A DNA stretch of 64,000 nt from Gemmatimonadales bacterium (GTDB taxonomy: Bacteria > Gemmatimonadota > Gemmatimonadetes > Gemmatimonadales > GWC2-71-9). Below, in pieces: positions 36,534 through 60,258 of this stretch. The stretch spans positions 497-64,496 of the forward strand of contig JACCSZ010000190.1 in the NCBI GenBank assembly GCA_013812695.1, read 5' to 3'. The notes under the pieces were generated by a model. The model ran no database searches. It had not been told where the DNA came from and saw only the letters and a list, made by a program, of their open reading frames with translations. Position numbers and translations under genes: made by a program. The stretch's first letter is position 1; each line of letters starts with the position of its first letter.

Positions 36534-37963
36534 TCGCGCGGCTCCTCGCCGGCCTCGTGGGCGCCGGGGCGCTGCTGCACGCGGGCAGCGCCCGGGCCGC
36601 GGCGCCCTGCGTCCGGCTCACGCGGGCCGGCACTCAGGTCCAGGGTGACGTGCGCGTGTGTCCAGGGCGATACCGGATCGCGGATCCGTCCGAGCGCGGC
36701 GTCCTGATCGCCGCCGCGTCAGGGACGCGGATCGATCTGGCCGGGGTCACCATCGAGAGCGGCGATTCGGTGGCCGAGCGCTACGTCGGCATCGGCGTCG
36801 CGAGCCGCGGCGTCGATGGTGTGACGGTGCTCGGTGGCACGGTCCGCGGGTACCGCGTCGGGGTTCGGCTGGACGGCGGGCGCAACCACCGAGTGACCGG
36901 CATCGACGTCTCGGGCAGCCGGCGGCAGCGGCTGCGCTCGACCACGCAACGGACGGACAGCCTCGACCGGCTCGACCTCGGCACCCTGGAGAGCGTCGAG
37001 CGGTACGGCGGGGGCGTACTGCTCCGCGGCACCGTGGGGGCCAGCGTGACCGGGGTGACGTCGCGCAGCGCGCAGAACGGCATCGGCCTGATCGATGCCA
37101 GCAACTCGTACCTGGCCGACAACAATCTGTCGGACAACTCGGGATGGGCGCTGCACCTCTACCGCTCCAGCCACAACACGGTGGTCCGGAACGATGGGTC
37201 GCGCACCCGGCGATGTCCCTCGGACCGGGCCGGCTGCGCGGCCGCCGCGATGCTCCTGCGGGAGGGCAGCGACTCCAACACGGTCGCCGACAACGATCTC
37301 AGGCGCTCGAGTATCGGCGTGCTGATCGCCGGGCCGCCGCGGGTGGGCCGGGTGTCGGTGGGAAACCTGATCTACCGGAACGACGCGTCCCTGGCCGGCG
37401 TGGCCGCGTTCGCCGCGCGCGGCACCTGGCGGGTCACGTGGCTCGACAACCGTGCCGACAGCGCCGCCGTCGGGTTCGAGCTGGTGCGGGTGAGCGCCTC
37501 GCTCGTCCGGGGCAACACCGTCATCGGCGCCCGGCGCGTGGCCATCGAGATCGTGCATGGCAGCGAGACGGGCATAGAAGCCAACGTCCTGCTCGGCGCG
37601 CCGGTGGGAGTGCGCGTGACCGCGCCCGACACGGGTGCCGCGCCGAGTCGCGGGTTCCGGATCGATGACAACCTGCTGGGCAATCTGGAGCAGGGCATCG
37701 CGCTCAGCGGCGTCGGCGGCAGCCGGCTCCGCGGCAACGTCTTCGACGGGGTGGGGGTCGGCCTCGTCGTGGATGGCGCCGGGCACGGCACCGAAGTGAC
37801 CGGCAACGTCTTCCTCCGCGCACGCCGGTGGTTCATCGATGCGCCCGACCTCGCGGCCGGCGGAAACTACTGGGCCACGGGCGACGCGGCGCGCGCGGCC
37901 GCCCGGGTGCGCGGCCGGGTCAGCGTGCTGCCGTGGAAGCCGGCGAGCGCGGCGGGCTACTAG
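36530..37963 (+). CDS. Secreted right-handed parallel beta-helix repeat protein (NosD/CASH-like)
   Basis: Signal peptide [23 protein letters not shown]. Repeated units of about 22 aa of the type G..V.GN.I, N.GIGL, N.L.DN. ATGA overlap with hisF. Confidence 0.6.
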
Positions 37964-40286
37964 CCGCGAGGACCTGCGACGCGAGCGCGTGGAGATCGCG
38001 GAGGTTGAATGGCTTGCTCGCGCGGAGGACCGGGCGGTCGGGGAGGGGGTCGGGCGGCGCGGCCGGCCCCGCGTAGGTGAGCACGAGGCGGTCGACGTCC
38101 CGTGGTCGGGCGGCCGCGAGTGCGTGCACGAAGAGCTCCGTCGCGCCGGCCGTCGTCCGCGCGTCGGCGATGATCAGGTCGTATTCGCGGTCGCCCGTCA
38201 GGCGCAGTCCCTGCTCGCCCGTCCGCACGCATTCCACTTCGACGCCCTCCGGTGCCAGCAGCGCGTTCACCAGACGATGGACGCCGGGGTCGGCATCGAC
38301 GACGAGCACGCGCTGCGGCTCGCGCGGGCGGGCGGGGGTGAGCCCTGCCTCCGGAGATTCCCCCGGCTCGCCGTCATGGCTCGGAAGCACCACACGGAAC
38401 TCGGCGCCGCCCTCGGCGGGCAGCTCGTAGCTGAGGACCCCGCTGTGCGATTGCACCAGCCCGTAGCTCAGCGAGAGCCCGAGGCCGGTGCCCTGGCCGG
38501 GCGCCTTGGTCGTGAAGAACGGGGTGAACAGATGCGACGTGTGCTGCAGGGGTACGCCGGGTCCGGTGTCCCGCACGCGGAGCACCGCCTGGCCCTCCTG
38601 CCGGGAGGTGGCGATGACGATCTTGCGCGGGCGCCCCGGCGGCAGCCCGCTCACCGCCTGCACCGCGTTGGTGATCAGGTTGAGCAGCACCTGCTGGAGC
38701 TCGTACCGGTCTCCGAGCACGACCACCGGAAGCCGGTCGAGCGCCTGCTCGAGCTCGATCCCGTGGAGCTGCAGCTCGTACACGATGAGCAGCGACGTGC
38801 GGGCCGCCACGTCATTGAGGTCGACGGGCGCCTTCTCGGGAACCCCCTTCCGCGCGAACGTCAGCAGGTTCCGCACGATGCGGCCGGCCCGCTCGGCTTG
38901 GTCGTGAATCACGCGCAGGTGCTCGCGCGGAAAGCTGGACGGCAGCTCGCGCTCGAGCAGCAGCTCGGTCAGGCCCGCGATCGACGTCAGCGGGTTGTTG
39001 AGCTCGTGGGCCACGCCCGACACCAACTGGCCGATCGACGCCATCTTGTCGCGCTGGATGAGCTGGGCCTCGAGCACCCGCTGCTCGGTCACGTCCTCGA
39101 CCAGCATGACGACCGGGCCGGTCCCCGCGCGCTCGGTGAACGGGCCTGCGGTCAGCCGGAGCACGCGGCCGGTCCGCTCGAGCCGGACGACGGCGGGCGC
39201 CGTCCGTTCGCCGCGGTGGGCCGCCTCGATCAGCTCCGCCACCGTCTCGGAGGTGCCGAGTAGCGCTTCGCAGAAGCCCTGGCCCACCAGCTCCGATTCC
39301 GACGTTTCGGCGAGCGCGGCGAGCGCGTGGTTGGCGCGGAGGATCGTGTCGCCCGGACCCACGAGCGCGATGCCTTCGGCCAGCGCGTTGAACGCCGTCT
39401 CCCATTCCTCCTTGCTCCGCCGCACGATCTCGTACAGCCGGCTGTTGGCCAGCACCACCGACGCGTTGGTCGCCACCGTGGACAGCAGCCAGAGGTCCTC
39501 GGTCGTGAACGGGCCACCCTGCCGGTCGGCGACCGCGAGGGCGCCCATGGTCACGCCCTGCGAGCGGAGCGGGGCGACCGCCGCGGAGCGGACGGTGAGC
39601 CCGCCGATCAGGTGGACCGACGGCGTCGCCGTGCCCTGCGCGACCTCGATGCGCTCGTGCTGGATGGCGAAGCGCACCAGGGCCGTGTCGGGGTCGTCGG
39701 TCACCTGCCCGATGAGCGGCTCGAGGGTGCCCGCGGCGCCGGCCACGCGCAGCATCCGCCCGGTCTCGTCGTCGCCGAGCACCACGATGGCGCCGTCCGC
39801 CTGCAGGAAACGCCCGGCGTATTTGGCGACCTGCTCGACGATGCGATCGAGCTGGATCGACTCCGAGAGCACGTAGCTCAGCTCCTGGAGAGAAAACAGC
39901 TCGCTGATCCGGCGGTCGAGCTGGCTGGCGAGCTGCTCGGACTTGAGTTCGGAGTCGCGCAGGCGCCGCCGCCCGCGGGCGATCGCCACCCAGAAGCTGC
40001 CCGAGATCGTGATCACGGCGAGGACCACGAGCCACCAGCGCTCGTCCTGGGCGAGCCACGCCACCACGCCGAGCAGCGTCGCGGCGACGGCGTGCACCGG
40101 CACCTCCCACTCCCTCCGCCAGACCGCGAGCAGCAGGATGAGCCCGGAGGCGATGCCGAGTCCCATCGCGACCCACCCGGGCAGTCCGCTGAGCAGCGAG
40201 CCGAGCAGGGCGCTCACCAGGAGCGCCCAGGCCACGAGGGCCGACGGCGAGAGGTACCAGCGATCGCGCGAGCGGCGCAGGCTCAA
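37920..40286 (-). CDS. Membrane-bound hybrid sensor histidine kinase (TM-GAF-GAF/PAS-HisKA-HATPase-REC)
   Basis: The TTG start overlaps the upstream stop (TTGA). The N-terminus has about 4 TM helices. H-box SGVAHELNNPLTSI, N-box LLNLITNAVQA, G-box GTGLGLSLSYGLV. C-terminal REC-like domain (VLVVDADPG...DLIIADA...SKPF). The 1158-aa ORF-track version is rejected. Confidence 0.8.
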   Translation of the reverse strand: MSLRRSRDRWYLSPSALVAWALLVSALLGSLLSGLPGWVAMGLGIASGLILLLAVWRREWEVPVHAVAATLLGVVAWLAQDERWWLVVLAVITISGSFWVAIARGRRRLRDSELKSEQLASQLDRRISELFSLQELSYVLSESIQLDRIVEQVAKYAGRFLQADGAIVVLGDDETGRMLRVAGAAGTLEPLIGQVTDDPDTALVRFAIQHERIEVAQGTATPSVHLIGGLTVRSAAVAPLRSQGVTMGALAVADRQGGPFTTEDLWLLSTVATNASVVLANSRLYEIVRRSKEEWETAFNALAEGIALVGPGDTILRANHALAALAETSESELVGQGFCEALLGTSETVAELIEAAHRGERTAPAVVRLERTGRVLRLTAGPFTERAGTGPVVMLVEDVTEQRVLEAQLIQRDKMASIGQLVSGVAHELNNPLTSIAGLTELLLERELPSSFPREHLRVIHDQAERAGRIVRNLLTFARKGVPEKAPVDLNDVAARTSLLIVYELQLHGIELEQALDRLPVVVLGDRYELQQVLLNLITNAVQAVSGLPPGRPRKIVIATSRQEGQAVLRVRDTGPGVPLQHTSHLFTPFFTTKAPGQGTGLGLSLSYGLVQSHSGVLSYELPAEGGAEFRVVLPSHDGEPGESPEAGLTPARPREPQRVLVVDADPGVHRLVNALLAPEGVEVECVRTGEQGLRLTGDREYDLIIADARTTAGATELFVHALAAARPRDVDRLVLTYAGPAAPPDPLPDRPVLRASKPFNLRDLHALASQVLAASSPPRSPASTAAR

Positions 40287-41128
40287 GGCTCCGCGGCGTG
40301 GCTGTGCGCGATCCGCTCGGCGACGTGCGCTTCGGGCGGCGCGTTCGGCTTGATGCGGATCGACTTGGCGGGAATCCCGACGTTCACGTGGAACGGCCGC
40401 ACGTTTTTGGTGGCTACCGCGCCGGCACCCACCATCGCGTTCCGCCCGACGCGCACGCCGGCCAGGACGGTGGCGTGGTAGGTGATGCGGACGTCGTCCT
40501 CCAGCACGGTGCGCGCGTTGGTCACGTCTTTCTGATCGACGATGCTGTGTGTGTGGCTGTAGATGTTCGCGTAATCCGAGATGCTGACGCGGTTCCCGAG
40601 CGTGAGGCCGCCGCGGTCGTCGAGCAGCACGTGGCGGTGCACGACACAGTCGTCGCCCACGTCCAGGTTGTACCCGAAGGAGAACTCGACGAACTGGAAG
40701 CACTTGAAGTTCCGCCCCACCCGTGCGAAGAGGTGCGGCGCGAGCAGCCGGCGGAAGCGGACGCCGAGGTGCACGTTCCCGCCGCCGAGCGGGGAGCGGT
40801 CGAAGCTCTGCCAGAGCCAGTGCAGCGGCTTGACCCGGGCGTACCGCTCGGCGTCGACGTCGGCGTAGTACTCGGGCTCCAGGGTCACGTTCGCCGGATC
40901 GAGACTCAGCAGCGCGGCGCGGGTGCCGAGCGGAAGAGCCGGATCGGCCACCAGCGCATCGTAGTCGGTGAGCCCCGGGTACCAGATCTCGAACATTACG
41001 TCCCGCGCGAGGCGGTTCCAGTCGGCACCGGGAGCGGCCAGGCGATGCTCGACCTGCTCGAGCCAGCCGTCCAATAGCCGCTCGGAGGTCTCCGGGAGGC
41101 CGACCGTCTTGAGGGGCAGAAAAGCCAT
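40283..41128 (-). CDS. Hexapeptide-repeat (left-handed beta-helix) acyltransferase with an unrecognised N-terminal domain of about 130 aa
   Basis: C-terminal LbH repeats (VGDDCVVHRHVLLDDRGGLTLGNRVSISDYANIYSHTH...VRITYHATVLAGVRVGRNAMVGAGAVA). I could not assign the N-terminal half to any family. Confidence 0.65.
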   Translation of the reverse strand: MAFLPLKTVGLPETSERLLDGWLEQVEHRLAAPGADWNRLARDVMFEIWYPGLTDYDALVADPALPLGTRAALLSLDPANVTLEPEYYADVDAERYARVKPLHWLWQSFDRSPLGGGNVHLGVRFRRLLAPHLFARVGRNFKCFQFVEFSFGYNLDVGDDCVVHRHVLLDDRGGLTLGNRVSISDYANIYSHTHSIVDQKDVTNARTVLEDDVRITYHATVLAGVRVGRNAMVGAGAVATKNVRPFHVNVGIPAKSIRIKPNAPPEAHVAERIAHSHAAEP

Positions 41129-41201
41129 CGAGGAGCCTCGGGGGCGGACCGGATGTTACGGGTGTGCGGGGGTTGCCTCCAATGATGTGTGGGGTGCGCA
41201 G

Positions 41202-41230
41202 TTGACACCAGTGCCAATGGGGAATAAAGT
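41202..41230 (+). promoter_or_regulatory. Sigma-70-like promoter for the porin/FMN-binding/ApbE operon
   Basis: TTGACA (41202-41207), a 17-nt spacer, then TAAAGT (41225-41230). Sits in a conspicuously AT-richer intergenic island, 57 nt upstream of the ATG at 41287. Confidence 0.45.
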
Positions 41231-41237
41231 AGTAGGT

Positions 41238-41259
41238 GTTCTCATGATAATCGTTCTCA
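41238..41259. promoter_or_regulatory. Fur-box-like operator overlapping the predicted transcription start
   Basis: GTTCTCA-TGATAAT-C-GTTCTCA. The 15-mer TGATAATCGTTCTCA matches the 7-1-7 Fur consensus TGATAAT-N-ATTATCA at 12 of 14 positions. Lies immediately downstream of the -10 element. Confidence 0.4.
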
Positions 41260-41286
41260 ACTAGTCTTTCCCCTGAGAAACGCGCT

Positions 41287-42435
41287 ATGCGCTGCCCGCC
41301 CCCGATGATCGCCCTGCTCGCACTGTGTTGCCTGCCGTTGGTGCCGCACCGGCTCGTCCAGGCCACGGCCCAGGAGCCCGACGAGGAGCGCACCACGGTG
41401 GGCGGGTACGGCGAGGTGCACTATCTCAATCCCACCGGACCCGGCACGCCCGGTGAGGTGAACGTCCGCCGCTTCGTGGTGTACCTCGCGCACGCTTTCA
41501 GCGAGCGCATCGCTTTCCGGTCCGAGCTCGAGCTCGAGGACACCAAGATCGAGGGTGGGGAAGACGGGGGCGAGGTGGCGCTGGAGCAAGCCTATCTCGA
41601 TTACACCCTGTCACCCGCCGCCACCATCCGCGCCGGCCTCGTGCTGCCGCCGATCGGCATCATCAACGAGACCCACGAGCCTCCGACCTTCAACGGCGTC
41701 GAGCGGCCGTCCTTCGAGCGGAACGTCATCCCGAGCACCTGGCGCGACATCGGCGTCGGTCTCGTCGGCGCCATCCCCGGCTCGTCGGGCCTCAACTACC
41801 GGGTGTTCTTCCTCAACGGGCTGGTCGCGAGCGGCTTCACGGCGGATGCCGGCATTCGCGGCGGCCGCCAGGAGGGCAAGGAGGCGAGCTTCGCGAACCC
41901 CTCGCTCACGGGCCGGATCGAGTGGGCGCGGCCGGGGCTTCGGCTGGGCGGCTCGTTCTGGTACGGCGGGAGCGCGGCGCAAGACCCGGTGCTGGGCACC
42001 GGGTCGTTCGACAACGCCGTGGCGCTGGTGTCGGCCGACGCGCGCTACGATGTGGGCCCCTTCATGTTCCGGGGCGTGGTCGCCAACGTGAGCATCGCCG
42101 ACGCCGACGCCATCAACGCGGCGTACGGCGGCCAGGTCGGCAGCCGGATCGCCGGCGGGTATCTCGAAGGCGCCTACGACCTGCTGTCGACGCTGGCTCC
42201 CGGATCCACCCACCGCCTCAACGCGTTCGTGCGCCACGAGCGCTACAACACCCAGGCGGGCGTGCCGGACGGCATCACTCGCGACGACGCGCTCGCGCGC
42301 CGGATCACCACCGTCGGCCTCTCGTACAAGCCGGTCTACAACGTGGTCTTCAAGGGCGATTACCAGCTTCGACGGAACCGTGCCGGGGCGGGCGAGGACG
42401 AGCAGCTCAGTCTGGGGGTGGGGTATCAGTTCTAG
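41287..42435 (+). CDS. Outer-membrane porin-like beta-barrel protein
   Basis: Signal peptide. Alternating amphipathic strands rich in Gly/Tyr/Asn. C-terminal LSLGVGYQF with terminal Phe. Confidence 0.6.
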   Translation: MRCPPPMIALLALCCLPLVPHRLVQATAQEPDEERTTVGGYGEVHYLNPTGPGTPGEVNVRRFVVYLAHAFSERIAFRSELELEDTKIEGGEDGGEVALEQAYLDYTLSPAATIRAGLVLPPIGIINETHEPPTFNGVERPSFERNVIPSTWRDIGVGLVGAIPGSSGLNYRVFFLNGLVASGFTADAGIRGGRQEGKEASFANPSLTGRIEWARPGLRLGGSFWYGGSAAQDPVLGTGSFDNAVALVSADARYDVGPFMFRGVVANVSIADADAINAAYGGQVGSRIAGGYLEGAYDLLSTLAPGSTHRLNAFVRHERYNTQAGVPDGITRDDALARRITTVGLSYKPVYNVVFKGDYQLRRNRAGAGEDEQLSLGVGYQF

Positions 42436-42455
42436 CCGGCAGCGCCACGCGATCC

Positions 42456-42570
42456 GTCATCCCGAGCGGAGCGAGGGGTCTGCTCCGCCGGGCTCGAGCT
42501 ACTCCGGCGCGAGATCCCTCGCCGTGCTCGGGATGACAGCGATGAGAGCCAGCGCTCCGTTCGGGATGAC
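42456..42570. repeat. REP-like palindromic element, copy 5 (full element plus an extra half arm)
   Basis: GTCATCCCGAGCGGAGCGAGGGG (42456-42478), inverted arm CCCTCGCCGTGCTCGGGATGAC (42516-42537), and an additional CGCTCCGTTCGGGATGAC (42553-42570). Intra-operonic. Confidence 0.8.
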
Positions 42571-43063
42571 AGCCGTCGTGGCCCTCCGCGTGTCGGTCCT
42601 GCTCGCCCTGCTCTCCCTTCCCGCCGTGGCGCAGTCCGCCCCGCCCGCCAGGCTCGCCAAGTCCATCGAGCGCGTCTACGGCGACGGTGCCCAGGTCGAC
42701 ACCCTCCGGGTCGACTCCGCCCGGGTCTACCGCATCTCCCGGAGCGGTACGCTGCTCGGCTTCGCGCAGGTGCGGAACGTGAAGGGCAAGGACCAGCAGA
42801 TCACCTACCTGGTGGCCACCGACTCCGCCGACGCGCTGCGCGATATCGACATCCTGGTCTACCGCGAGCCGTACGGCGGCGAGGTGGCGTACGAGCCGTG
42901 GCGCAAGCAGTTTCGCGGGAAGACCAGCAACGCCGCGCTCCAGGTGGGCAAGGATATCCGGAACGTCTCCGGTGCCACGATCAGCTCCAACGCGGTCACC
43001 CGCGGCGTGCGGCGGGCCCTGGCGGACCTCACCGCGTGGCGCGCCGCGGGGAAGTTGCGGTGA
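42566..43063 (+). CDS. Exported FMN-binding domain protein (ApbE flavinylation substrate)
   Basis: Signal peptide MTAVVALRVSVLLALLSLPAVAQS. FMN_bind-type motif NVSGATISSNAV (Thr of SGAT is the usual FMN attachment site). An alternative ATG at 42533 exists, and both ATGs lie inside GGATGAC repeat arms. Confidence 0.7.
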   Translation: MTAVVALRVSVLLALLSLPAVAQSAPPARLAKSIERVYGDGAQVDTLRVDSARVYRISRSGTLLGFAQVRNVKGKDQQITYLVATDSADALRDIDILVYREPYGGEVAYEPWRKQFRGKTSNAALQVGKDIRNVSGATISSNAVTRGVRRALADLTAWRAAGKLR

Positions 43064-43569
43064 CGGAGGCGCGCGGGCCGGTCTGGCGGCAGCTCTCGCC
43101 CGCGCTCCGCGCGCTCGGGCTGTGGGTCACGATCGTGCAGCTCGCCGGGTACACCACCGGATTGCTCTTCGTGTATCACACGACCGGCATGACGCCGCCC
43201 GGCGCCACCGCGCAGTACCGCGGCTCCGACTCCACCGTGGTGACCGATGCCGCCATGAAGTTTCCGAAATCGTACGCCGAAATGCTCAACATCACGCATA
43301 CGCACCTGCTCGGCATGGCGGCGATCTTCGTCGTCAGCGGCGTCGCGCTGGCGCTCTGCGAGCGGCCCGCGGAGCGCTGGCGGGTGTTCCTCATCGCGGA
43401 GCCGTTCGCCGCGCTCCTGGTCTCGTTCACGGCGATGTGGCTCATGCGCTACGTGGACCCCGGCTACAGTTGGCTGCTCACGCTGTCGAGCGGGCTGATG
43501 GCGATCACGTTCTACGCGCAGTCGCTGCTGGTCCTGCGGGAGCTGCTGGCGCCGCGAGCGCCGCGATGA
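43060..43569 (+). CDS. Hypothetical 4-TM membrane protein with His-containing motifs
   Basis: GTGA overlap with the upstream gene and ATGA overlap with apbE. Four hydrophobic helices. His residues at helix ends (VYHTTG, NITHTHLLGM). No family recognised. Confidence 0.5.
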   Translation: MTEARGPVWRQLSPALRALGLWVTIVQLAGYTTGLLFVYHTTGMTPPGATAQYRGSDSTVVTDAAMKFPKSYAEMLNITHTHLLGMAAIFVVSGVALALCERPAERWRVFLIAEPFAALLVSFTAMWLMRYVDPGYSWLLTLSSGLMAITFYAQSLLVLRELLAPRAPR

Positions 43570-44510
43570 GGCGCCGAGCGTTTTTCGGCGCCGTCGCCAT
43601 GGGTCTGGCCGGCACCGCCGCGCCGCGATGGCTCACGGGCTCGGTCGGGCACGCGGGCGATGAGGCGTTCGTCGAGCGCTGGTCGTGGGCGATGGGCCAG
43701 CCGGTCCGCCTGCGACTCTTCGCGGAGTCGGAATCGGCCGGCTACGATGCCGCTCAGGCCGCGCTGGCCGAGCTCCGGCGGGTCGAAGGCGCGCTCTCCC
43801 GGTTCGACGAGTCGAGCGATCTCTCCGAGCTCAACCGGCGGGCGGGCCGCGGACCGATCGCGGGCGGGCCCGATCTCCTCGCGGTGCTCGCCTCGGCTGT
43901 CGAGTTCCGGCGCAGCACCGAAGGCGCGTTCGACGCCGCGATCGAGCCGCTCATGCGGACGTGGGGATTCCATGCGCCGCGCGCCGGCGAGCCGACCCCG
44001 GCCGAGCTGGCGGAGGCGCGTGCGGCGGTGCATGCGGCCGGGATCGACTTGGGCGAGGGGCGCGTTGCCTTGAGGGGCGCCGCGACTCGGCTCGATCTCG
44101 GCGGGATAGGCGTCGGCTACGGGCTCGACCGGGCGGCGGAGGTCCTGCGCCGATCGGGGGTCCGCCGCGCGCTGCTGGACGTGAGCGGCGACTGCGTGGC
44201 GCTCGGCGCCCCACCGGGCGAGTCCGGCTGGCTGGTGGAGATCGCCGATCCCGAGCGGCCGGGCACGGTGATGGGCTCGACGCGCCTGCGCGATGCCGCG
44301 CTGGCCACCTCCTCGAATCTGGTGTCCGTGGTGCGCTACGGTCGGGCCGTCCGCGGGCACGTCATGGATCCCGCCAGCGGCTATCCGGCGGCGCAATGTC
44401 GCCAGGTCAGCGTGGTGGCGCGCACGGGGCTCGAGGCGGACGCGCTCTCGACCGCCATGCTGGTCTCGCCTAGGAAGTACCCGGGGGTGCTGCGCTCGTA
44501 CGTTCGGTGA
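43566..44510 (+). CDS. apbE: FAD:protein FMN transferase (ApbE family), Tat-type signal
   Basis: MRRRAFFGAVAMGLAG twin-arginine-like N-terminus. ApbE motifs SDLSELNR, GAFDAAIEPLMRTWGF, DLGGIGVGYGLDR, ATSSN. Confidence 0.85.
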   Translation: MRRRAFFGAVAMGLAGTAAPRWLTGSVGHAGDEAFVERWSWAMGQPVRLRLFAESESAGYDAAQAALAELRRVEGALSRFDESSDLSELNRRAGRGPIAGGPDLLAVLASAVEFRRSTEGAFDAAIEPLMRTWGFHAPRAGEPTPAELAEARAAVHAAGIDLGEGRVALRGAATRLDLGGIGVGYGLDRAAEVLRRSGVRRALLDVSGDCVALGAPPGESGWLVEIADPERPGTVMGSTRLRDAALATSSNLVSVVRYGRAVRGHVMDPASGYPAAQCRQVSVVARTGLEADALSTAMLVSPRKYPGVLRSYVR

Positions 44511-44516
44511 AGCCGA

Positions 44517-44612
44517 GTCACCCTGAGCGATGCGAAGGGGGCATCCTTAGAGGCATGCCCCCTTCGCTCTGCTCAGGGTGACTCCCGTCAGGTCAGGGTG
44601 ACTCCCGTCAGG
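44517..44612. repeat. REP-like palindromic element, copy 6 (full element plus a perfect 20-bp tandem duplication)
   Basis: GTCACCCTGAGCGATGCGAAGGGGGCAT ... ATGCCCCCTTCGCTCTGCTCAGGGTGAC (2 mismatches). TCAGGGTGACTCCCGTCAGG then occurs twice in tandem (44573-44612). Confidence 0.85.
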
Positions 44613-44629
44613 GCGAGTCCACACGACCG

Positions 44630-45331
44630 CTAGGGCGTGCCGCGCGCCCGAATGCTATCGCCGGCCACGCTGTCCACCGCCACCCGCCCCGCCTGAACCG
44701 TGTCGCGGACCCCGCCGCGAGCCCGGAGCGCGACCCGCGCACGCTCGCGGTCGAGCGTGATCTGCTTGCCCTGCCAGTCGTCGGATCTCTGCCCCGCGTA
44801 GCGCAGCGAGAACGAGTCGTTGACCGGCAGGTCCTCCTCATACAGATAGATGCCGCTCACCTGTTCGCGCACGTCGAGTTGCTGCGAGGTGAAGTGCCCG
44901 CTGAACGGCACGATGGCGAGCGGGCGGAATTCGCGGTTCCGGACCACCACGATCAGGGTCTGCGGGTCGAAGCGGGCGTCCGTCCGCTGGGCGTGAAAGG
45001 TCACGAGTGCCAGCCCCGGGCGGGACACCCCGGACCGGTTGGCGAGCGAATCGATGGCCGCCCGCCGGGATTCGACCAGCGACCGGAGCGACTCCCAACT
45101 GTCCCGGGCCAGGAGCCGGGTCACCCGGGCATCGAGGGGCACGAATCGCACGTCGAGGTCCGGTGTCTGGATGCGGAGGGCGAGGTCGTTCTGGGTGAGC
45201 GAGCCGTAGCCGCCCGCCGGGAGCGGGGCCGCGGCGCCGCCACCCGCCTGGGACACGGCTGGTGCGGCGCGTCCGATCAGGAGGACGGCGGAGCACAGCA
45301 GCAGAGACCACGGTCGCTGCACGATCCTCAC
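44630..45331 (-). CDS. Hypothetical secreted protein
   Basis: Signal peptide [28 protein letters not shown]. 4-nt overlap with engB. No family recognised. Confidence 0.45.
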
Positions 45332-45932
45332 GCGGTCCCTCCCACGGCGGCCAGGATGCTCTCGGCGAGCTCGGCGATACCCAGCCGCGAGGTACTGCTG
45401 GTGAGCTGGAGCTGGTCGTCATGCAAGCCCAGGGCCACGGCGAGCGCACGGGTTCGCTGCGACTGCGCGGAGCGGGTCAGCTTGTCGCCCTTGGTCAGCG
45501 CCACCAGCACCGGGTGGCCGCTCCGGGCGAGCAGGTCCTGCATGTCCCGGTCGTCGCTCGACGGCTGGTGCCGCACGTCGAGCAGCCAGACCACGCCGGC
45601 CAGCGTCGGCCGCTCGAGCAGGTAGCGATCCACGAGCCGGCGGTACCCGGCGCGCGCGGTCTTGCCGGCCCGGGCCCACCCGTAGCCCGGCAAGTCGACC
45701 AGATAGAAACCGGGAAAGCGAAAGGCGTTGAGCAGGGTGGTCTTGCCGGGGGTCCCGCTCACGCGCGCGAGCCCGGGCCGGCCGGTGAGCGCGTTGAGCA
45801 GGCTCGACTTGCCCACGTTGGACCGGCCGATCAGCGCGACTTCGGGGAGCGGCGGGGAGAGCGTGACCAGCGGGTCGGGAAACGAGCCGACGAACTCGAC
45901 CGGCGCCGCGGAGAGCGGCGTCGGGAGCGCGG

Positions 45933-45936: not shown

Positions 45937-47207
<1,271 letters not shown>

Positions 47208-47240
47208 GGGGACCTTGCCTCGTTGCTTGAGATTTCAATG

Positions 47241-47288
47241 ATAACTAAATAAACAACGGCGTTTCCCGTGTTACAGGAAACGCCGTTG
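47241..47288 (-). terminator. Hairpin plus T-tract between clpP and clpX (terminator/attenuator)
   Basis: On the minus strand: CAACGGCGTTTCC-tgtaacacg-GGAAACGCCGTTG (perfect 13-bp stem) followed by TTTATTTAGTTAT. Confidence 0.5.
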
Positions 47289-47334
47289 CTGCTATGCAAC
47301 CAGAGGTATGAGCGGCTCGCGGCTCGCTGGTTCC

Positions 47335-47943
47335 TCAGGGACGCTTGGCAATCACCTGATCGACCAGGCCGTACGACTTGGATTCCTCGGCATCGAGGAA
47401 ATAGTCGCGCTCAGTGTCCAGCCTGATCTTCTCGATGGGCTGGCCCGTGCGCTCGGCAAGGATGCGATTCATCGTTTCCTTGGTCTTCAAAATTTCCTTC
47501 GCATGGATCTCGATGTCCGTCGCCTGTCCCTGCGCACCGCCCAGGACCTGGTGGATCATGACCTTGGAATTGGGCAGCGAGAACCGCTTGCCCTTGGCGC
47601 CCGCGGCCAGCAGGAACGCGCCCATGCTCGCCGCCATGCCCGTGCAAAGGGTCGACACGTCCGGCTTGATGAAGTTCATGGTGTCATAGATGGCCATGCC
47701 GGCGCTGACACTTCCGCCGGGCGAGTTGATGTAGAACGAGATGTCCTTGTCCGGGTTCTCGCTTTCGAGGAAGAGCAGCTGCGCCACCACCAGGTTGGCC
47801 GTCTGGTCGTTCACCGGGCCGACCAGGAAAATCACGCGTTCGCGCAGCAGGCGCGAATAGATGTCGTAGGACCGCTCGCCGCGGCCGGATTGCTCGATGA
47901 CGATCGGCACCATGCCAAGCGCCTGGGTTTCAAGTGAACTCAT
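47335..47943 (-). CDS. clpP: ATP-dependent Clp protease proteolytic subunit
   Basis: Start at [34 protein letters not shown], catalytic [15 protein letters not shown]. The upstream 30 codons of the ORF-track call are rejected. Confidence 0.95.
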
Positions 47944-47987
47944 GGGGAAAACTCCGGGTTGCCTGTGCTGTACTTTATGCCAAAAGC

Positions 47988-48015
47988 AAATGGGGCTTGT
48001 GGCCGGGACTGCAAG
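47988..48015 (-). promoter_or_regulatory. Sigma-32 (RpoH) type heat-shock promoter upstream of clpP
   Basis: The minus strand reads CTTGCAG, a 13-nt spacer, then CCCCATTT. The proteobacterial consensus is CTTGAAA-N13/14-CCCCATNT. Confidence 0.5.
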
Positions 48016-48093
48016 TCCCTCCCAAAGCCCCACTTCAGTGACACGGCCTTTCAGGCCGCGTTTGCCCCTTGTCGATGCCGCGCTCTCACGCCG

Positions 48094-49410
48094 TTATCCC
48101 TGCTGGCCCATCAGATCGTCGAAGGAAACGGCCTTCTCGACGACCTTGGCCTGCTTCAGCACGAACTCCGTGACATTGTTCTCGATCACGATGGCTTCGA
48201 CTTCGGCGAGGCGCTGCTTGTCGCCGTAGTACCAACGCACAACGTCAGCCGGCTTCTCGTAGCTCGCCGCCAACTCTTCCACGTGGCTCTTCACCTGCTC
48301 CGGCTTGGCATGCAGGTTGTTGCTGCGCACCAGTTCCGCGACCACGAGGCCAAGCCGAACTCGGCGCTCGGCCTGGGAACGGAACATGTCGTCGGGCACC
48401 GGAACCTTGTCGGCGTCCTTGATGCCGCGCTGCTTCAGGTCCGCGCGCGCGCCTTCGATCATGCGATCTACCTCGGACTGCACACTCGACCTGGGCAGGT
48501 CCAGCTCGGCCTTGCCCACCAGCGCGTCCATGACGGACTGCTTGTTCCTGGCCAACAGGCGGAACTTGACTTCGCGCTCCAGGTTCTTGCGAATGTCGGC
48601 CCGCAGCCCATCCACGGTCGCGTCGGCGATCCCCAGCGATTTCGCCAGGGCCTCGTTCACTTCCGGCAGGTTGGCCGCTTCGATCTTCTTGACGGTGACC
48701 ATGAAGTCGGCCTGCTTGCCCGCCACATCCTTGCCGTGGTAGTCGGCAGGAAACGCGAGGGGAAAGGTCTTGCTCTCGCCTGCTTTCATGCCGCGCACGG
48801 CTTCCTCGAACTCCTTGAGCATCTGGCCTTCGCCGACCAGGAACTGGAAGTCGGAGGAAACGCCGCCCTGGAATGTCTCGCCGTCGATCTTGCCTTCGAA
48901 GTCGACCGTCACCCGGTCGCCATCCTGGGCGGCGGCGTCCTGCGCACGCTGGGCGAAGGTGCGGCGCTGCTTGCGCAGGATATCGAGCGTCTTGTCGATC
49001 GCGGAATCGTTCACCTCGGCGCTGAGCTTCTCGACTTCAGCTGTGGAAAGATCGCCGATCTTGACCTCGGGGAACACCTCGAACACCGCGTCGAACGCGA
49101 GCTGCCCTTCCGGGGACTGCTCCTTCTCGGTGATCTTGGGCTGGCCGGCCACGCGAAGCTTGGCCTCGTTGGCGGCTTGGGCGAACGCCTCGCCCACCTT
49201 GTCGTTCATCACCTCGTAGTGAACCGAATAGCCGTAGCGCTGGGCCACAACCGTCATCGGAACCTTGCCGGGGCGAAAGCCGTCCATCTTCACGGTGCGC
49301 GCCAGGCGCTTCAGGCGGGAATCGACTTCCGACTGGATGACGTTGACGGGCAACATCAGCGTCATCTTGCGTTCCAGCTTCTCAAGGGTTTCAACGGTCA
49401 CGGCCATCAT
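48094..49410 (-). CDS. tig: Trigger factor
   Basis: MAVTVETLEKLERKMTL, GFRPGKVP, a central FKBP-type PPIase region and the C-terminal domain. The true start may be the second ATG (49407). Confidence 0.95.
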   Translation of the reverse strand: MMAVTVETLEKLERKMTLMLPVNVIQSEVDSRLKRLARTVKMDGFRPGKVPMTVVAQRYGYSVHYEVMNDKVGEAFAQAANEAKLRVAGQPKITEKEQSPEGQLAFDAVFEVFPEVKIGDLSTAEVEKLSAEVNDSAIDKTLDILRKQRRTFAQRAQDAAAQDGDRVTVDFEGKIDGETFQGGVSSDFQFLVGEGQMLKEFEEAVRGMKAGESKTFPLAFPADYHGKDVAGKQADFMVTVKKIEAANLPEVNEALAKSLGIADATVDGLRADIRKNLEREVKFRLLARNKQSVMDALVGKAELDLPRSSVQSEVDRMIEGARADLKQRGIKDADKVPVPDDMFRSQAERRVRLGLVVAELVRSNNLHAKPEQVKSHVEELAASYEKPADVVRWYYGDKQRLAEVEAIVIENNVTEFVLKQAKVVEKAVSFDDLMGQQG

Positions 49411-49439
49411 TGCTCTCTTTTTTTGCAGTAAAGGTGTTC

Positions 49440-49526
49440 TGGTGCGCGGGGGGGGACTCGAACCCCCACACCATTGCTGGCGTCAGGACCTAAACCTGGT
49501 GCGTCTACCAATTTCGCCACCCGCGC
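49440..49526 (-). tRNA. tRNA-Leu (anticodon UAG), class II with long variable arm, CCA encoded
   Basis: The minus strand reads GCGCGGGTGGCGAAATTGGTAGACGCACCAGGTTTAGGTCCTGACGCCAGCAATGGTGTGGGGGTTCGAGTCCCCCCCGCGCACCA. It folds by hand into a cloverleaf with a 7-bp acceptor stem, anticodon loop TTTAGGT and T-arm GGGGG-TTCGAGT-CCCCC. Confidence 0.9.
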
Positions 49527-49543
49527 TTAAGCTCAAAGTCAAA

Positions 49544-49572
49544 GCGGGCGGCCGGATAACCCGACCGCCCGC
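49544..49572 (-). terminator. Candidate terminator hairpin after the RND operon
   Basis: GCGGGCGG-13 nt-CCGCCCGC. On the minus strand it is followed by TTTGACTTTGAG. Located between the RND stop and tRNA-Leu. Confidence 0.4.
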
Positions 49573-49595
49573 CCTAATTCGGTCAACCCGGTATT

Positions 49596-52500
49596 TTAGA
49601 CGGGAACGGGCGACGCACCCGCCAGGGAGGGCTCGGCGGGCGGGGCGTCCTCCCGCTTGACCCTGAACCAGGCGGCATACATTGCCGGCAAGGCCAGCAG
49701 CGTCAGCACCGTAGCGACGATCAGCCCGCCCATGATCGCCACGGCCATGGGGCCCCAGAAAACCGATCGCGACAGCGGGATCATGGCCAGCACGGCGGCT
49801 GCCGCCGTGAGCACGATCGGCCGCAGCCGGCGCACGGCGGATTCGACGATCGCGTCCCAGGCGGGCACGCCCCGGGCGCGATCCTGCTCGATCTGGTCGA
49901 TGAGGATCACCGAATTGCGCTGGATCATGCCCATGAGCGCGATCACCCCCAGCAAGGCGACGAATCCGAATGGCCGTCCCAGCAGCAGCAAGGCGCCCGC
50001 CACACCGGCGATGCCCAGCGGTCCGGTGATGAACACCAGCATGGCGCGGCTGAAGCTGTGCAACTGCAGCATAAGGAGCGTGAAGGTGATGAACAGCATG
50101 ATGGGCACGCCCGCCGAGATGGACGATGTTCCCTTGGAGCTCTCCTCCACCGCGCCGGCCACCTGGATCTGGTAGCCCAGCGGCCACTTCTTCTCCAGCG
50201 CCTTCAGCTGCGGCAACAACTCGTCGGTCACCGTGGCGCCCTGCATTCCCTCGACCATGTCGCCTTGCACGGTGATCGCATAGTCGCGGTTCTCGCGCCA
50301 CATCACGCCCGGCTCCCAGCTGAACACCGGCTTTGCGATCTGCGTGAGCGGAATGGATTTGCCCGAAGCCGTCGGCAGGTAGGCGTTGCCGAGGTCGGTG
50401 ATGGCGTTGCGCTCGTCCAGCGGCTGGCGCAGCACGATGTCGATCAATTTGTCGCCTTCGCGGTACTGGCCCACGTTGGTGCCCGACAGGATGGTCTTGG
50501 CGGCCTGGGCGATGGACTGGCTGGTCACGCCCAGCGCGCGGGCCTTGGACTGGTCCACCTCCAGGCGCAGCACCTTGACCGACTCGTTCCAGTTGTCGTT
50601 CACGCCTCGCGTGTTCGGGCTGGCGCGCATGACCGCCTTGACCTCGTCGGCGCGCTCGCGCAGTCCGATGGGGTCGGGACCGACCACGCGGAACTGCACC
50701 GGGTACGGGATCGGCGGGCCGTTGGGCAGCAGCTTGACGCGTCCGCGCACTTCCGGAAATTCCTGCGCAAGGAGGGCGGGAAGTTTCACTCGCAGCGTTT
50801 CGCGCACTTTCAAATCCACGGGCAGCACAATGAACTGGGAAACATTGGTCTGGGGAAAAACCTGGTCGAGCGGCAGGTAGAAACGCGGCACGCCCGAACC
50901 CACCCAGGTGCTCACGGAGGTCACGCCCGCTTCGCCGCGCAGGCGCTGTTCCACCCGCTTGGTGACCTCTTCGTTGGCGGCGAACGAGGTCCCTTCCGGG
51001 AACCAGACGTCCACCATGATCTCGGGCCGGCTGGAATCCGGGAAGAACTGCTGCTGCACCTTGCCCATGCCGACGATGCCCAGCGCGAACGTAAGCACCG
51101 TGGCGCCGATGGTGATCCAGCGATGTTCCACGCACCAATCGACGGTGCGCCGGAACGTGCGGTAGAACGGCGTGTCGAAATGCTCGTGATGGTCGGGCTC
51201 CGCCGGGGTGGGTCCAACCGTGGAAGGACGCGAGGCTTTGGCCTCGCGTTTATCCGTCAACAATATCGTGCCAAGGTACGGGACGAAATACACCGACACC
51301 AGCCAGCTCAACACCAAAGCGATCACGGTGACCGCGAAGATGGCGAACGTGTACTCGCCCACCGTGGACTTTGCCATGCCGATCGGCAGGAATCCCGCGG
51401 CCGTGATCAGCGTGCCCGTGAGCATCGGCATGGCGGTGATCTCGTAGGCGAACGTCGCGGCGCGCACCTTGTCATAGCCCTCCTCCATCTTGCGCACCAT
51501 CATCTCCACGGCAATGATCGCGTCATCGACCAGCAGGCCCAGCGCGATGATGAGCGAGCCCAGCGAGATCTTGTGCAGGCCGATGCCCCAGTAGTCCATC
51601 GCCAGGAAAGTCACCGCCAGCACCAGCGGTATCGTGATGCCCACGACCAGGCCCGGCCGCATATCCACGTAGTAGCGCTTCCACAGCGGCAGCATGGCCG
51701 CGTCGGGGCGCTTGTGCAGCCCCAGGGCGATGAAGCTCACCGCCAGCACGATGAGCACGGCTTCGATCAGCGTACGGACAAATTCGTTGACGGAGTTGGC
51801 CACGGCGCGGGGCTGGTCCTGGATCTGCACCAGCTTGATGCCGGCCGGAAGCCCGTCCTCGATCCGGTTAAACGTCGTCTTGAGCGATTGTCCGAGGCGG
51901 ATGATGTCGCCGCCCTTGGCCATGGAAACGCCCAGGGCGATGACTTCCTTGCCCTGGTGACGCACCTTGACCGCCGGCGGATCGGCGTAGCCGCGCTTGA
52001 TCTCCGCGATGTCCCCCAGGCGCAACTGGTTGCCCGAGGACCCGCGTATCGGCATTGCGCGCAGTTCCTCCACGGCCTCGAACTGGCCGCCGACCCGAAC
52101 CTGGACCACGTCCAGCGGCGTCTGCACGGCTCCTGCGGACTCCACCGCATTCTGCTGGCTCAACTGCTGCAATACCTGCGTCAAATCCAGCCCGAGCTGC
52201 GCCAGGCGTTTCTGCGAGATCTCGACGTAGAGCTTCTCGTCCTGGACGCCGAACAGTTCGACCTTGGCAACATCCTGCACACGCAGCAGCTGCTGGCGCA
52301 CATCGTCGGCGAAGGCCTTGAGTTCCGCGTAGTTGAATCCGTCCGACTCCAGCGCGTAGATCACGCCATAAACGTCGCCGAAATCGTCATTGAAGAAAGG
52401 CCCCTGGATGCCGCCGGGCAGCTGGAACCGCATGTCGCCGATCTTCTTGCGCACCGTGTACCAGACATTGGCCACGTCGCCGGGCTTGGACGAATCCTTG

Positions 52501-52811
52501 ATCTGGAAAATGATCTGCGATTCGCCCGGCTTGGAGTAGCTGCGTATCTTGTCGGCATAAGGCGCCTCCTGCAGCGCCCGCTCGATCTTGTCGGTGACCT
52601 GCTCGGCGACCTGCTGCGCCGTCGCGCCCGGCCAGTAGGTGCGAACCACCATGGCGCGGAAGGTGAAAGGCGGGTCCTCGTCCTGGCCAAGCTGGAAGTA
52701 CGAAGCGAAGCCCAGCAGCATCAGCACCACCATCAGGTAGCGCGTGAGCGCCGGGTGATCGAGCGCCCATCTGGAGAGGTTGAAACCTTCTTTGGGTTGT
52801 GCCTGCGTCAT
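49596..52811 (-). CDS. RND-family efflux transporter, inner-membrane permease (AcrB/AcrD/AcrF family)
   Basis: 1071 aa with two large periplasmic loops and 12 TM segments. Typical motifs FNLSRWALDHPALT, GLLVDDAIIAVE, VLTLLALPAMYA. Confidence 0.9.
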   Translation of the reverse strand: MTQAQPKEGFNLSRWALDHPALTRYLMVVLMLLGFASYFQLGQDEDPPFTFRAMVVRTYWPGATAQQVAEQVTDKIERALQEAPYADKIRSYSKPGESQIIFQIKDSSKPGDVANVWYTVRKKIGDMRFQLPGGIQGPFFNDDFGDVYGVIYALESDGFNYAELKAFADDVRQQLLRVQDVAKVELFGVQDEKLYVEISQKRLAQLGLDLTQVLQQLSQQNAVESAGAVQTPLDVVQVRVGGQFEAVEELRAMPIRGSSGNQLRLGDIAEIKRGYADPPAVKVRHQGKEVIALGVSMAKGGDIIRLGQSLKTTFNRIEDGLPAGIKLVQIQDQPRAVANSVNEFVRTLIEAVLIVLAVSFIALGLHKRPDAAMLPLWKRYYVDMRPGLVVGITIPLVLAVTFLAMDYWGIGLHKISLGSLIIALGLLVDDAIIAVEMMVRKMEEGYDKVRAATFAYEITAMPMLTGTLITAAGFLPIGMAKSTVGEYTFAIFAVTVIALVLSWLVSVYFVPYLGTILLTDKREAKASRPSTVGPTPAEPDHHEHFDTPFYRTFRRTVDWCVEHRWITIGATVLTFALGIVGMGKVQQQFFPDSSRPEIMVDVWFPEGTSFAANEEVTKRVEQRLRGEAGVTSVSTWVGSGVPRFYLPLDQVFPQTNVSQFIVLPVDLKVRETLRVKLPALLAQEFPEVRGRVKLLPNGPPIPYPVQFRVVGPDPIGLRERADEVKAVMRASPNTRGVNDNWNESVKVLRLEVDQSKARALGVTSQSIAQAAKTILSGTNVGQYREGDKLIDIVLRQPLDERNAITDLGNAYLPTASGKSIPLTQIAKPVFSWEPGVMWRENRDYAITVQGDMVEGMQGATVTDELLPQLKALEKKWPLGYQIQVAGAVEESSKGTSSISAGVPIMLFITFTLLMLQLHSFSRAMLVFITGPLGIAGVAGALLLLGRPFGFVALLGVIALMGMIQRNSVILIDQIEQDRARGVPAWDAIVESAVRRLRPIVLTAAAAVLAMIPLSRSVFWGPMAVAIMGGLIVATVLTLLALPAMYAAWFRVKREDAPPAEPSLAGASPVPV

Positions 52812-52818
52812 GTCCGGC

Positions 52819-53970: not shown

Positions 53971-54077
53971 GACAAACCTAAGCTAAAAGTAACTAACTAC
54001 AATCACTAATGACTGACCGGTTAGTAATCTAGGATAATTGCCTAGGCTTGTCAAGCGACAATCCGCAGGCCAACGAC

Positions 54078-55936: not shown

Positions 55937-56015
55937 GCCTGCGCGGACAGACCTTTGCAGAGACACGGTGGCTCTCTACCGGTTGAGCCGCGACGCGAGG
56001 ACTGTCCGGCGAAAA

Positions 56016-56717: not shown

Positions 56718-56753
56718 GAGCGAACGTGGGGGTCCATTCAGTGAGAATACCTC

Positions 56754-58752: not shown

Positions 58753-58787
58753 GATGGACCCCTTCGTGCCTGTTTTGCCTGCAAGCG

Positions 58788-60249: not shown

Positions 60250-60258
60250 ATTCTTGGT

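Follow-up and report, generated by a model that had tools for sequence, protein, structure and literature searches.

A cluster of four same-direction genes lies in a stretch of 64,000 nucleotides (nt) from a soil bacterium of the order Gemmatimonadales (assembly GCA_013812695.1, contig JACCSZ010000190.1, forward strand 497-64,496), and this whole stretch is called the window below. The genes encode a porin, an exported protein with a flavin mononucleotide (FMN)-binding domain (FMN_bind), a protein with four transmembrane helices (4-TM) and the flavin transferase ApbE. What do these four proteins do together, and what controls their expression? A reading made from the DNA alone (the sequence-only reading) had proposed a flavin module that is expressed under iron limitation. 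Our analysis supports this proposal: none of the comparisons that could be run on protein families, gene order and regulatory site went against it, and distant loci added an iron context. We regard the gene set as an iron module based on flavinylation, in which the membrane partner is undescribed and the porin is dedicated to the module; it is widespread in environmental diderms. With moderate confidence, we propose that the operon is repressed by a Fur-family metalloregulator, most probably an iron-responsive one, and that it builds an envelope-spanning module for flavin-based iron acquisition.

Four overlapping or closely spaced genes form one operon

The window has a GC content of 69%, and its closest named relatives are metagenome-assembled genomes of Gemmatimonadales. 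The four genes are laid out as follows.

41287-42435, plus strand: porin open reading frame (ORF), 382 amino acids (aa)
42566-43063, plus strand: FMN_bind gene, about 165 aa, in an ORF that is open from 42380
43060-43569, plus strand: 4-TM gene, 169 aa
43566-44510, plus strand: ApbE gene, 314 aa

The common direction of the genes and the overlaps between the last three had been claimed before, and all are present at these coordinates. As read from the sequence, a GTGA at 43060-43063 joins the stop codon of the FMN_bind gene to the start codon of the 4-TM gene, and an ATGA at 43566-43569 joins the stop codon of the 4-TM gene to the start codon of the ApbE gene. The start of the FMN_bind gene is probably the ATG at 42566 (165 aa), which corrects the ORF start at 42380. 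The orthologue in a syntenic locus (L001) is 163 aa long, and 42453-42540 is a non-coding repeat. The four genes form one operon, with overlapping genes in the same direction, a single promoter and operator, and a hairpin that follows the last gene. The genes on either side are unrelated: a histidine kinase and an acetyltransferase are encoded upstream, and engB, clpX, clpP and tig downstream.

A predicted exported flavoprotein and its flavin transferase

The second protein of the operon matches Pfam family FMN_bind (PF04205) with an E-value of 2.5e-9 (38.1 bits against a cut-off of 22). Its translation reads as an N-terminal export signal (...LLALLSLPAVAQS), and an SGATIS acceptor motif is found near its C-terminus, which bears out the earlier description of an exported FMN_bind protein with this motif. 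The acceptor Thr (GAT) is kept in all 46 of the 46 orthologues, and the first Ser is replaced by Ala in seven of them. By its domain, its [S/T]GA[S/T] motif and its export signal, the protein qualifies as the type of protein that serves as an ApbE substrate, and it is predicted to carry covalent FMN. Its best named sequence relatives are RnfG and NqrC, with weak matches (E ~3e-7).

The ApbE protein matches Pfam family ApbE (PF02424) far above the cut-off (E 2.5e-60, 204.7 bits against 25.6) over profile positions 1-247 of 266. Its N-terminus (MRRRAFFGAVAMGLAGTAAP) starts with MRRRAFFG; read by eye from the translation, a twin-arginine motif there leads into a hydrophobic stretch. This reads as a signal of the twin-arginine translocation (Tat) type, in agreement with the claim of a Tat-exported ApbE.

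The FMN_bind orthologues that were inspected also share a conserved YRExYGGExxYE motif. In its longer form, YRE(P/S)YGGExxYExFRxQFxGK, this Tyr- and Glu-rich motif lies at about 42870-42940, close ahead of the flavinylation site. The inspected orthologues from modules of the window's type have it in near-identical form, and loci of a variant with DUF6607 (described below) keep part of it. We know of no such motif in RnfG or NqrC. It could be a patch that binds ferric iron.

The flavoprotein and the 4-TM protein are an obligate pair

To see how widely the gene set is kept, neighbourhoods were gathered from metagenome look-ups and 42 genome loci, and were screened with the four window proteins and by all-against-all clustering (loci are numbered where they have to be told apart). 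In every locus with upstream DNA, about 31 of which are outside Gemmatimonadales, an FMN_bind gene stands immediately upstream of the 4-TM gene. The loci span about ten phyla or classes. They come from Bacteroidota (among them Saprospiraceae, Flavobacteriaceae and Portibacter lacus, an isolate), Kapaibacterium, Ignavibacteria, Chlorobiota, Fibrobacterota and Rhodothermaceae, and further from Alphaproteobacteria, Chromatiales, Ectothiorhodospiraceae and Halioglobus. Among the roughly 31 loci outside Gemmatimonadales, a porin homologue adjoins the pair in about 25, sometimes in divergent orientation, and ApbE does so in about 17. As the FMN_bind gene always directly precedes the 4-TM gene, with the porin mostly present and ApbE present about half of the time, the core of the module is the flavoprotein and the 4-TM protein, usually with the porin and often with ApbE. 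The FMN_bind and 4-TM genes are thus an obligate pair. Gene order is conserved far beyond Gemmatimonadales, and the character of the gene set as a unit is solid.

A variant of the module has the order DUF6607, FMN_bind, 4-TM and is found in Saprospiraceae, Portibacter and other Bacteroidota and in Halioglobus (L042-L048, e.g., L048 2663-8432 and L045 3020-8408). Here DUF6607 takes the place of the porin, and neither porin nor ApbE is found within 8 kb. DUF6607 was considered as a divergent porin and rejected, as its alignment resembles a soluble exported protein and not a barrel. A gene for a PD40/TolB-like periplasmic beta-propeller was also seen, upstream of the porin in L025, L028, L034 and L037 and downstream of the 4-TM gene in L053. 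The propeller may be an accessory component in Bacteroidota-related lineages.

The 4-TM protein belongs to a family without an assigned function

The partner of the flavoprotein falls into Pfam family PF27139 (Aq_1264_TM), according to the precomputed annotation of an identical protein (P0001) and of all 120 homologues listed. Its name comes from an uncharacterised Aquifex protein, and the family has no function attached to it. It is large: the homologues form 740 clusters at 90% identity, all of them annotated as PF27139, and there are 282 representatives at 50% identity with E <=1e-3. The AlphaFold2 model of the window protein (predicted local distance difference test, pLDDT, 94.3) has four long helices and a short periplasmic helix. 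The positive-inside rule, applied to the sequence, would place both termini in the cytoplasm, and H80-x-H82 would therefore lie at the periplasmic start of the second helix. The sequence-only reading had pointed to His residues at the helix ends. These are H40, at the end of the first helix, and H80 and H82, and only the latter two are invariant; they are the only invariant residues in 60 diverse homologues. Several small residues (G30, G34, G55, G94 and S143) are conserved. The spacing L76-x3-H80-x2-L83 fits what we take to be the loose Fisher-Rich motif for quinone sites, to which we give little weight.

Known families offered no identity for this protein. Neither a PDB sequence search nor a Foldseek search with the pLDDT-94 model found a relative of solved structure. 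A known cytochrome or transporter was rejected, as the best Foldseek match (E 0.4) was to generic helix bundles and the PDB sequence and Pfam scans gave nothing. Scanning 60 family members against Pfam gave no consistent match (a single match to PepSY_TM_like_2 had an E-value of 0.096), and the window protein itself had none in our Pfam and NCBIfam scans. The published membrane classes of flavinylation systems (NapH-like, MsrQ-like, PepSY-like, DsbD, NqrB/RnfD-like and DUF4405) were tested via PF12801, PF01794, PF03929/PF16357, PF02683, PF03116 and DUF4405, and by their four heme-ligating His or iron-sulfur Cys motifs; the window protein matched none of them. The 4-TM family has only two invariant His, both on one helix. 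Literature searches for aq_1264 and for DUF6607 returned nothing specific.

The porin resembles general porins and has a ladder of invariant Glu residues

The first protein of the operon has a signal peptide and ends in ...GVGYQF, with a terminal Phe. Its AlphaFold2 model comprises about 16 strands, with a long loop formed by residues 120-153, and Foldseek matched this model to OmpK35, OmpC, OmpF and OmpU at E ~1e-11 (template modelling score 0.55-0.66). The protein is thus predicted to have the 16-strand fold of general porins with an inward loop like their L3, and the outer-membrane beta-barrel that had been claimed is what the signal peptide, the terminal Phe and the model all point to.

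The best-conserved part of the porin, as judged from 23 orthologues, is the L3-like loop, PxGIINETHEPPTFxGVERP. E80, E82, E84, E100, N127, H130 and R140 are invariant in these orthologues. As E80, E82 and E84 are on one strand, they point to the same face and form an acidic ladder of Glu residues. This suggests that the lumen is specialised for cationic or metal species.

About 2500 homologues of the porin were found, of which the named ones are all called "hypothetical protein" and none has a Pfam domain; the window porin has no match in Pfam or NCBIfam. Membership in a curated family (PF07396 Porin_O_P, LbtU, ExtI and others) was considered and rejected, as NCBIfam searches with the 23 orthologues gave nothing consistent. 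One relative had weak matches to LbtU and ExtI (E ~2e-3) that did not recur, and some relatives had faint matches to PF07396 or BBP2. The sole match from a PDB profile search was OmpA (E 0.2). For both the 4-TM protein and the porin, no characterised family with an unrelated role was found, PF27139 being uninformative and the porin being without a family.

A conserved promoter carries a candidate Fur-family operator

Two regulatory elements precede the porin gene.

41202-41230, plus strand: sigma-70-type promoter TTGACA-17-TAAAGT, the only promoter-like match in 40-46 kb
41245-41259, plus strand: candidate Fur-family 7-1-7 operator TGATAATCGTTCTCA, matching TGATAAT-N-ATTATCA at 12 of 14 positions

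Both elements, and the AT-rich island that contains them, had been described in the sequence-only reading and were recovered here. The stretch at 41196-41290 is the only one at the 60-nt scale with a GC content of 47% or less in bases 1-46000. Shuffles of 40-46 kb gave a mean of 0.2 promoter-like matches. The operator begins 15 nt downstream of the -10 hexamer and, with a transcription start expected near 41237 from the position of that hexamer, would cover about +8 to +22. In the 64-kb window, TGATAATCGTTCTCA is the only match to the 7-1-7 consensus with three or fewer mismatches, where 0.06 are expected; such a match occurred once in each of 6 of 100 shuffles of the window.

For comparison, we took the promoters of 11 further Gemmatimonadales genomes; their proteins share 64-86% identity with the window proteins. 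Ten of these promoters keep the site in place, about 30-45 nt ahead of the porin's ATG, so that a background check on window and orthologous promoters favours a real site. Eight have TGAWAAT-N-ATTWTCA within two mismatches, as the sole match in each locus of about 16 kb, and in two of the genomes (L008 and L010) the operator is the perfect palindrome TGAAAATCATTTTCA. L016 has a weaker site in the same place, and L020 has a different promoter, with TGATAATCATCATTCTCA at the operator position. Across the window and the ten genomes that share its promoter, the 80-nt block 41186-41264, which comprises the hexamers, the spacer and the operator, has a column identity of 84-96%, which equals that of the best-conserved coding segments, whereas flanking intergenic DNA is at 40-71%. 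Both hexamers and the spacer are almost invariant in 11 Gemmatimonadales genomes. We read this block as a phylogenetic footprint rather than a chance match.

Near-invariance in 11 Gemmatimonadales genomes extends to the 17-nt spacer (CCAGTGCCAATGGGGAA) and to some 20 nt ahead of the -35 hexamer (CCAATGATGTGTGGGG), and the conservation of 41186-41264 is more than one would expect of a promoter with a single operator. This may reflect a second DNA-binding factor, or constraint from a divergent promoter of the acetyltransferase gene.

Boxes like this one are known from other bacteria. Among the Fur boxes predicted in delta-proteobacteria, a 15-mer identical to TGAAAATCATTTTCA is a candidate box upstream of fur2-feoB1 in Desulfuromonas, and near-identical boxes precede fur and feoB in Geobacter. 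In Mycobacterium avium this 15-mer serves as a Zur box, and it belongs to the mycobacterial and corynebacterial type of Zur box. A 7-1-7 box of this type was absent upstream of the module in other phyla, and conservation of the operator was seen within Gemmatimonadales only. In Kapaibacterium and Ignavibacteria, a TATTAAGACTCAGTCTTAATA palindrome precedes the fur gene that heads the cluster (L025 ~4320-4345, L028 ~3340-3365, L034 ~4265-4290 and L037 ~3515-3540). The palindrome ATTAGATTTAATCTAAT is found in L038 (~6230-6250), and the half-site AATCTAAT in L021, L032, L033 and L035. These lineage-specific palindromes are possibly Fur-family operators of their own.

Iron genes adjoin the module in distant lineages

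Outside Gemmatimonadales, the module recurs in co-directional clusters with iron genes and is found in the following contexts.

L005: end of feoB, 59-aa Cys-rich ORF, porin, FMN_bind, 4-TM, ApbE and a SufT-like gene, with overlapping starts
L028 and L037: fur, FTR1, PD40 propeller, porin, FMN_bind, 4-TM and ApbE
L025, L029 and L034: a fur gene upstream of the module
L021, L023 and L024: a ferritin-like gene adjoining the porin
L026: TonB receptor, PepSY_TM, porin, FMN_bind and 4-TM
L042-L048: the FMN_bind/4-TM pair divergent from a heme-type TonB receptor, with a gene for an HmuY-like protein of the type IX secretion system in four loci and DUF6686 in at least two

The fur copy in L034 scores best against the Fur equivalogs (1e-24), with Zur (9e-12) and PerR lower. 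The surroundings of L042-L048 suggest that, in the DUF6607 variant, the pair of flavoprotein and 4-TM protein serves the use of heme iron. In L054 (3281-7114, minus strand), a porin-led module is divergent from genes of heme biosynthesis (hemA, hemC/D and hemB). No zinc or manganese genes were found in any neighbourhood examined. P19 was not identified in any locus examined, and FTR1 was found only in L028 and L037. Taken together, the link of the module to iron is well supported.

Repeats and neighbouring sequence

Two non-coding elements fall within or next to the operon, both resembling repetitive extragenic palindromic (REP) sequences.

42453-42540, no strand assigned: REP-like palindromic dispersed repeat between porin and FMN_bind, outside the conserved module
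44513-44586, no strand assigned: REP-like long hairpin directly 3' of the ApbE stop, as read from the sequence

The repeat unit, GTCATCCYGAGCGGAGCGARGG, occurs in seven copies in the window where none is expected, at 1900-1921 (minus strand), 13778-13875, 26364-26385 (minus strand), 42456-42570 and 44513-44586. The pair of copies between the porin and FMN_bind genes folds as a long hairpin (z = -3.05). The repeat is absent from L001, where the gap between these genes is 17 nt. The hairpin at 44513-44586 probably marks the 3' end of the transcript, and REP-like hairpins may act as intercistronic or 3' stabilisers of RNA, or as terminators. A riboswitch or leader RNA at the promoter or between the genes was rejected, as an Rfam scan of 40000-45500 gave only spurious, sub-threshold microRNA matches on the REP hairpins.

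On the minus strand, a 1158-aa ORF at 37920-41396 is a read-through artefact of high GC content, which covers a GAF/PAS hybrid histidine kinase and a hexapeptide-repeat acetyltransferase (40283-41128). In the syntenic locus L001, the histidine kinase and the acetyltransferase are separate genes of 754 and 280 aa. From clpX/clpP/tig onward (about 46000-64000 of the window), the GC content falls from about 70% to about 64%, and this part has more AT-rich intergenic islands, such as 47186-47300 and 53936-54080.

A model for reductive iron acquisition and its alternatives

Our proposed model runs from the operator to the inner membrane. A Fur-family repressor would sit at the site just downstream of the promoter, and its release would allow the operon to be expressed. 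The 16-strand porin would let iron species into the periplasm, and the Tat-exported ApbE would attach FMN covalently to the SGAT Thr of the secreted FMN_bind protein. The 4-TM protein would tie this flavoprotein to the membrane and would most likely relay electrons from the quinol pool via its invariant, periplasm-facing HxH site. The reduced flavin would then reduce Fe(III) or Fe(III) chelates to Fe(II), which would be imported by a permease of the FeoB or FTR1 type, encoded within the cluster in some lineages and elsewhere in the genome in the case of the window. We favour an electron relay from quinol to flavin as the role of the 4-TM protein, because it always accompanies the flavoprotein, co-occurs with true permeases and has no conserved cytoplasmic donor gene nearby. 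Of all steps in the model, this relay is the weakest. Small membrane proteins without obvious cofactors are known to relay electrons from quinol in the extracellular electron transfer (EET) system of Listeria.

More broadly, we suggest, with less than even confidence, that Aq_1264_TM may represent a new and minimal class of inner-membrane partners of proteins flavinylated by ApbE, which would either couple the quinol pool directly to the covalent flavin or bind a heme or a metal that their subunits share. In combination with the acidic porin, it would make up a TonB- and siderophore-independent, Fur-controlled route of reductive iron uptake that is widespread in diderms of soil and sediment (Gemmatimonadota, Bacteroidota, Ignavibacteria, Fibrobacterota and some Proteobacteria).

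Several points weigh against our model. All support for it comes from sequence and genomic context, and it is from these that we infer flavinylation, the direction of electron flow, the electron donor, the substrate and the sensed metal. The 4-TM protein has only two invariant residues, both periplasmic, and no recognisable cofactor or quinone site, which makes its role as an electron conduit a guess. The missing cytoplasmic donor gene, which was not conserved near the module in the loci examined, counts here as well, and the PepSY_TM protein in L026 is a known type of electron conduit whose presence makes a second one redundant. The porin model is of low confidence (pLDDT 61.5) and was built on a shallow alignment at 75-88% identity. 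Within the 64-kb window, fur, feoB, FTR1, TonB-receptor genes and other iron genes are all absent. Finally, as Zur uses the same type of box in mycobacteria, the box sequence alone leaves the sensed metal unidentified.

Alternatively, the 4-TM protein may itself be a metal permease or its periplasmic entry: the flavoprotein would reduce Fe(III), and Fe(II) would be captured at the HxH site, perhaps that of an oligomer, and passed across the inner membrane. The invariant HxH at the periplasmic mouth of a helix bundle and a membrane-embedded Glu-Pro (E114-P115) in the third helix suit such a role, no further permease is encoded in the window operon or in many of the other loci, and the PepSY_TM protein in L026 could supply the electrons and free the 4-TM protein for another task. 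However, E114-P115 is kept in only 72% of members and is lost in one clade that is still paired with FMN_bind. Very few polar residues lie within the membrane, and the module co-occurs with bona fide permeases, namely FeoB (L005) and FTR1 (L028 and L037). We therefore consider a permease unlikely.

A different role under the same regulation would be that of an iron-sparing electron carrier, in which the flavoprotein and its membrane partner replace a periplasmic route of heme or iron-sulfur proteins at low iron, by analogy with flavodoxin for ferredoxin. Control of the Fur type suits iron-sparing substitutions, and the Discussion of a survey of flavinylation (PMC8238504) suggests that electron transfer by flavinylated proteins may be of advantage where iron is scarce. 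On these terms, however, it is hard to see why a dedicated porin with an invariant acidic ladder should be conserved along with the pair, and the neighbours of the module are genes of uptake and storage (feoB, FTR1, TonB receptors and ferritin-like genes) rather than respiratory enzymes. This makes an iron-sparing carrier quite unlikely.

The regulator may also be another member of the Fur family (Zur, Mur, PerR or Nur), and the module may serve another metal or a peroxide or redox response. This draws on the identity of TGAAAATCATTTTCA with the mycobacterial and corynebacterial Zur box and on the lack of a regulator gene in the window. Against it, the metal-related neighbours are all iron genes, with none for zinc or manganese in the neighbourhoods examined. 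Where a regulator gene is adjacent it scores best as Fur (1e-24 against 9e-12 for Zur), and the same type of box is predicted to bind Fur before feoB and fur in delta-proteobacteria. A regulator other than Fur is thus very unlikely.

That the 4-TM protein is a maturation factor, as a membrane dock or a supplier of flavin adenine dinucleotide (FAD) for ApbE-dependent flavinylation, is highly improbable: a natural Aq_1264_TM-ApbE fusion of 531 aa exists, the 4-TM and ApbE genes overlap in many loci and the route of FAD to periplasmic ApbE is stated to be obscure (2025 ApbE review), but at least seven loci with flanks of about 8 kb keep FMN_bind and 4-TM with no ApbE nearby, the invariant partner is the flavoprotein and not ApbE, and FAD export is not a likely task for a bundle of four helices in which two His are invariant.

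Comparison with known flavin and iron systems

Reductive, siderophore-independent uptake of iron over the Gram-negative envelope is poorly understood with respect to the passage of ferric iron through the outer membrane, the periplasmic reductant and the source of electrons. The module described here offers a compact genetic handle on these three steps, in the form of a porin with an acidic ladder, a flavinylated periplasmic protein and a new membrane partner, and it is kept across many abundant, little-studied environmental phyla. The known components of extracytosolic electron transfer by flavinylation would gain a membrane protein, and a Pfam family that has no function would be given one. 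As its pieces are small and expressible, the hypothesis is directly testable.

Bioinformatic work has already linked flavinylated extracytosolic proteins to iron assimilation, among others in Fur-repressed PepSY-like clusters and in P19-FTR1 clusters (Meheust et al. 2021, PMC8238504; Huang et al. 2024). Five transmembrane classes of flavinylation systems have been described, plus a DUF4405 class (Meheust et al. 2021, PMC8238504; Huang et al. 2024). A term search of Meheust et al. 2021, Huang et al. 2024 and the 2025 ApbE review did not find the quartet, and the 4-TM partner was not found in the first two of these, the surveys of flavin systems; as far as these terms reach in the three sources, the earlier statement that the quartet is not a recognised, characterised system stands. 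Our literature search for a characterised flavinylated periplasmic ferric reductase gave nothing specific.

The FMN_bind protein shares its SGAT flavinylation site with RnfG and NqrC, its best named relatives. It differs from them in score (30 bits, against family cut-offs of 102-230), and no membrane subunits of Rnf or Nqr are encoded nearby. The EET system of Listeria (PplA, FmnB, EetA, EetB, Ndh2 and demethylmenaquinone, DMK; Light et al. 2018, as cited in PMC8238504) likewise has an ApbE-type enzyme that flavinylates an extracytosolic FMN_bind protein, which reduces ferric iron. Unlike our module, this system is Gram-positive and without a porin, has a dedicated NADH dehydrogenase and genes for quinone synthesis, and serves respiration rather than assimilation.

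P19-FTR1 clusters resemble the module in that FMN_bind is co-located with an iron permease (PMC8238504), as in the versions of the module with FTR1 (L028 and L037). They are mostly Gram-positive and have no gene for a porin or Aq_1264_TM (PMC8238504), and the window, in turn, has neither FTR1 nor P19.

For the porin, a parallel is found in psp, a hypothetical porin of Geobacter metallireducens and Desulfuromonas with upstream Fur boxes of the TGAAAAT-N-ATTTTCA type, which was proposed to be an iron carrier (Rodionov et al. 2004, PMC545781). The same paper notes a weak similarity of psp to phosphate-selective porins (PF07396) and names homologues of it from Aquifex aeolicus and uncultured bacteria. 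In a comparison by description only, the relatives of the window porin also give faint PF07396 matches, and the 4-TM family takes its name from an Aquifex protein. The window porin family fits the description of psp. The account of psp in PMC545781 treats it as a single gene and, in that account, FMN_bind, 4-TM and ApbE go unmentioned.

The PepSY-like clusters (PMC8238504), which combine PepSY-like, FMN_bind and ApbE genes, share several features with the module: like it, they have ApbE, an exported FMN_bind protein and a small inner-membrane partner with several helices, are under Fur control in some species and are associated with outer-membrane iron uptake proteins. One of their kind, FoxB, is cited in PMC11334425 as a PepSY-like assimilatory iron reductase with a structure. 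The two differ in their membrane parts. The inner-membrane partner of the PepSY-like clusters is a PepSY_TM cytochrome with four heme-ligating His, whereas here it is Aq_1264_TM, with four helices and one periplasmic HxH; and where those clusters have a TonB receptor in the outer membrane, the module has a TonB-independent porin.

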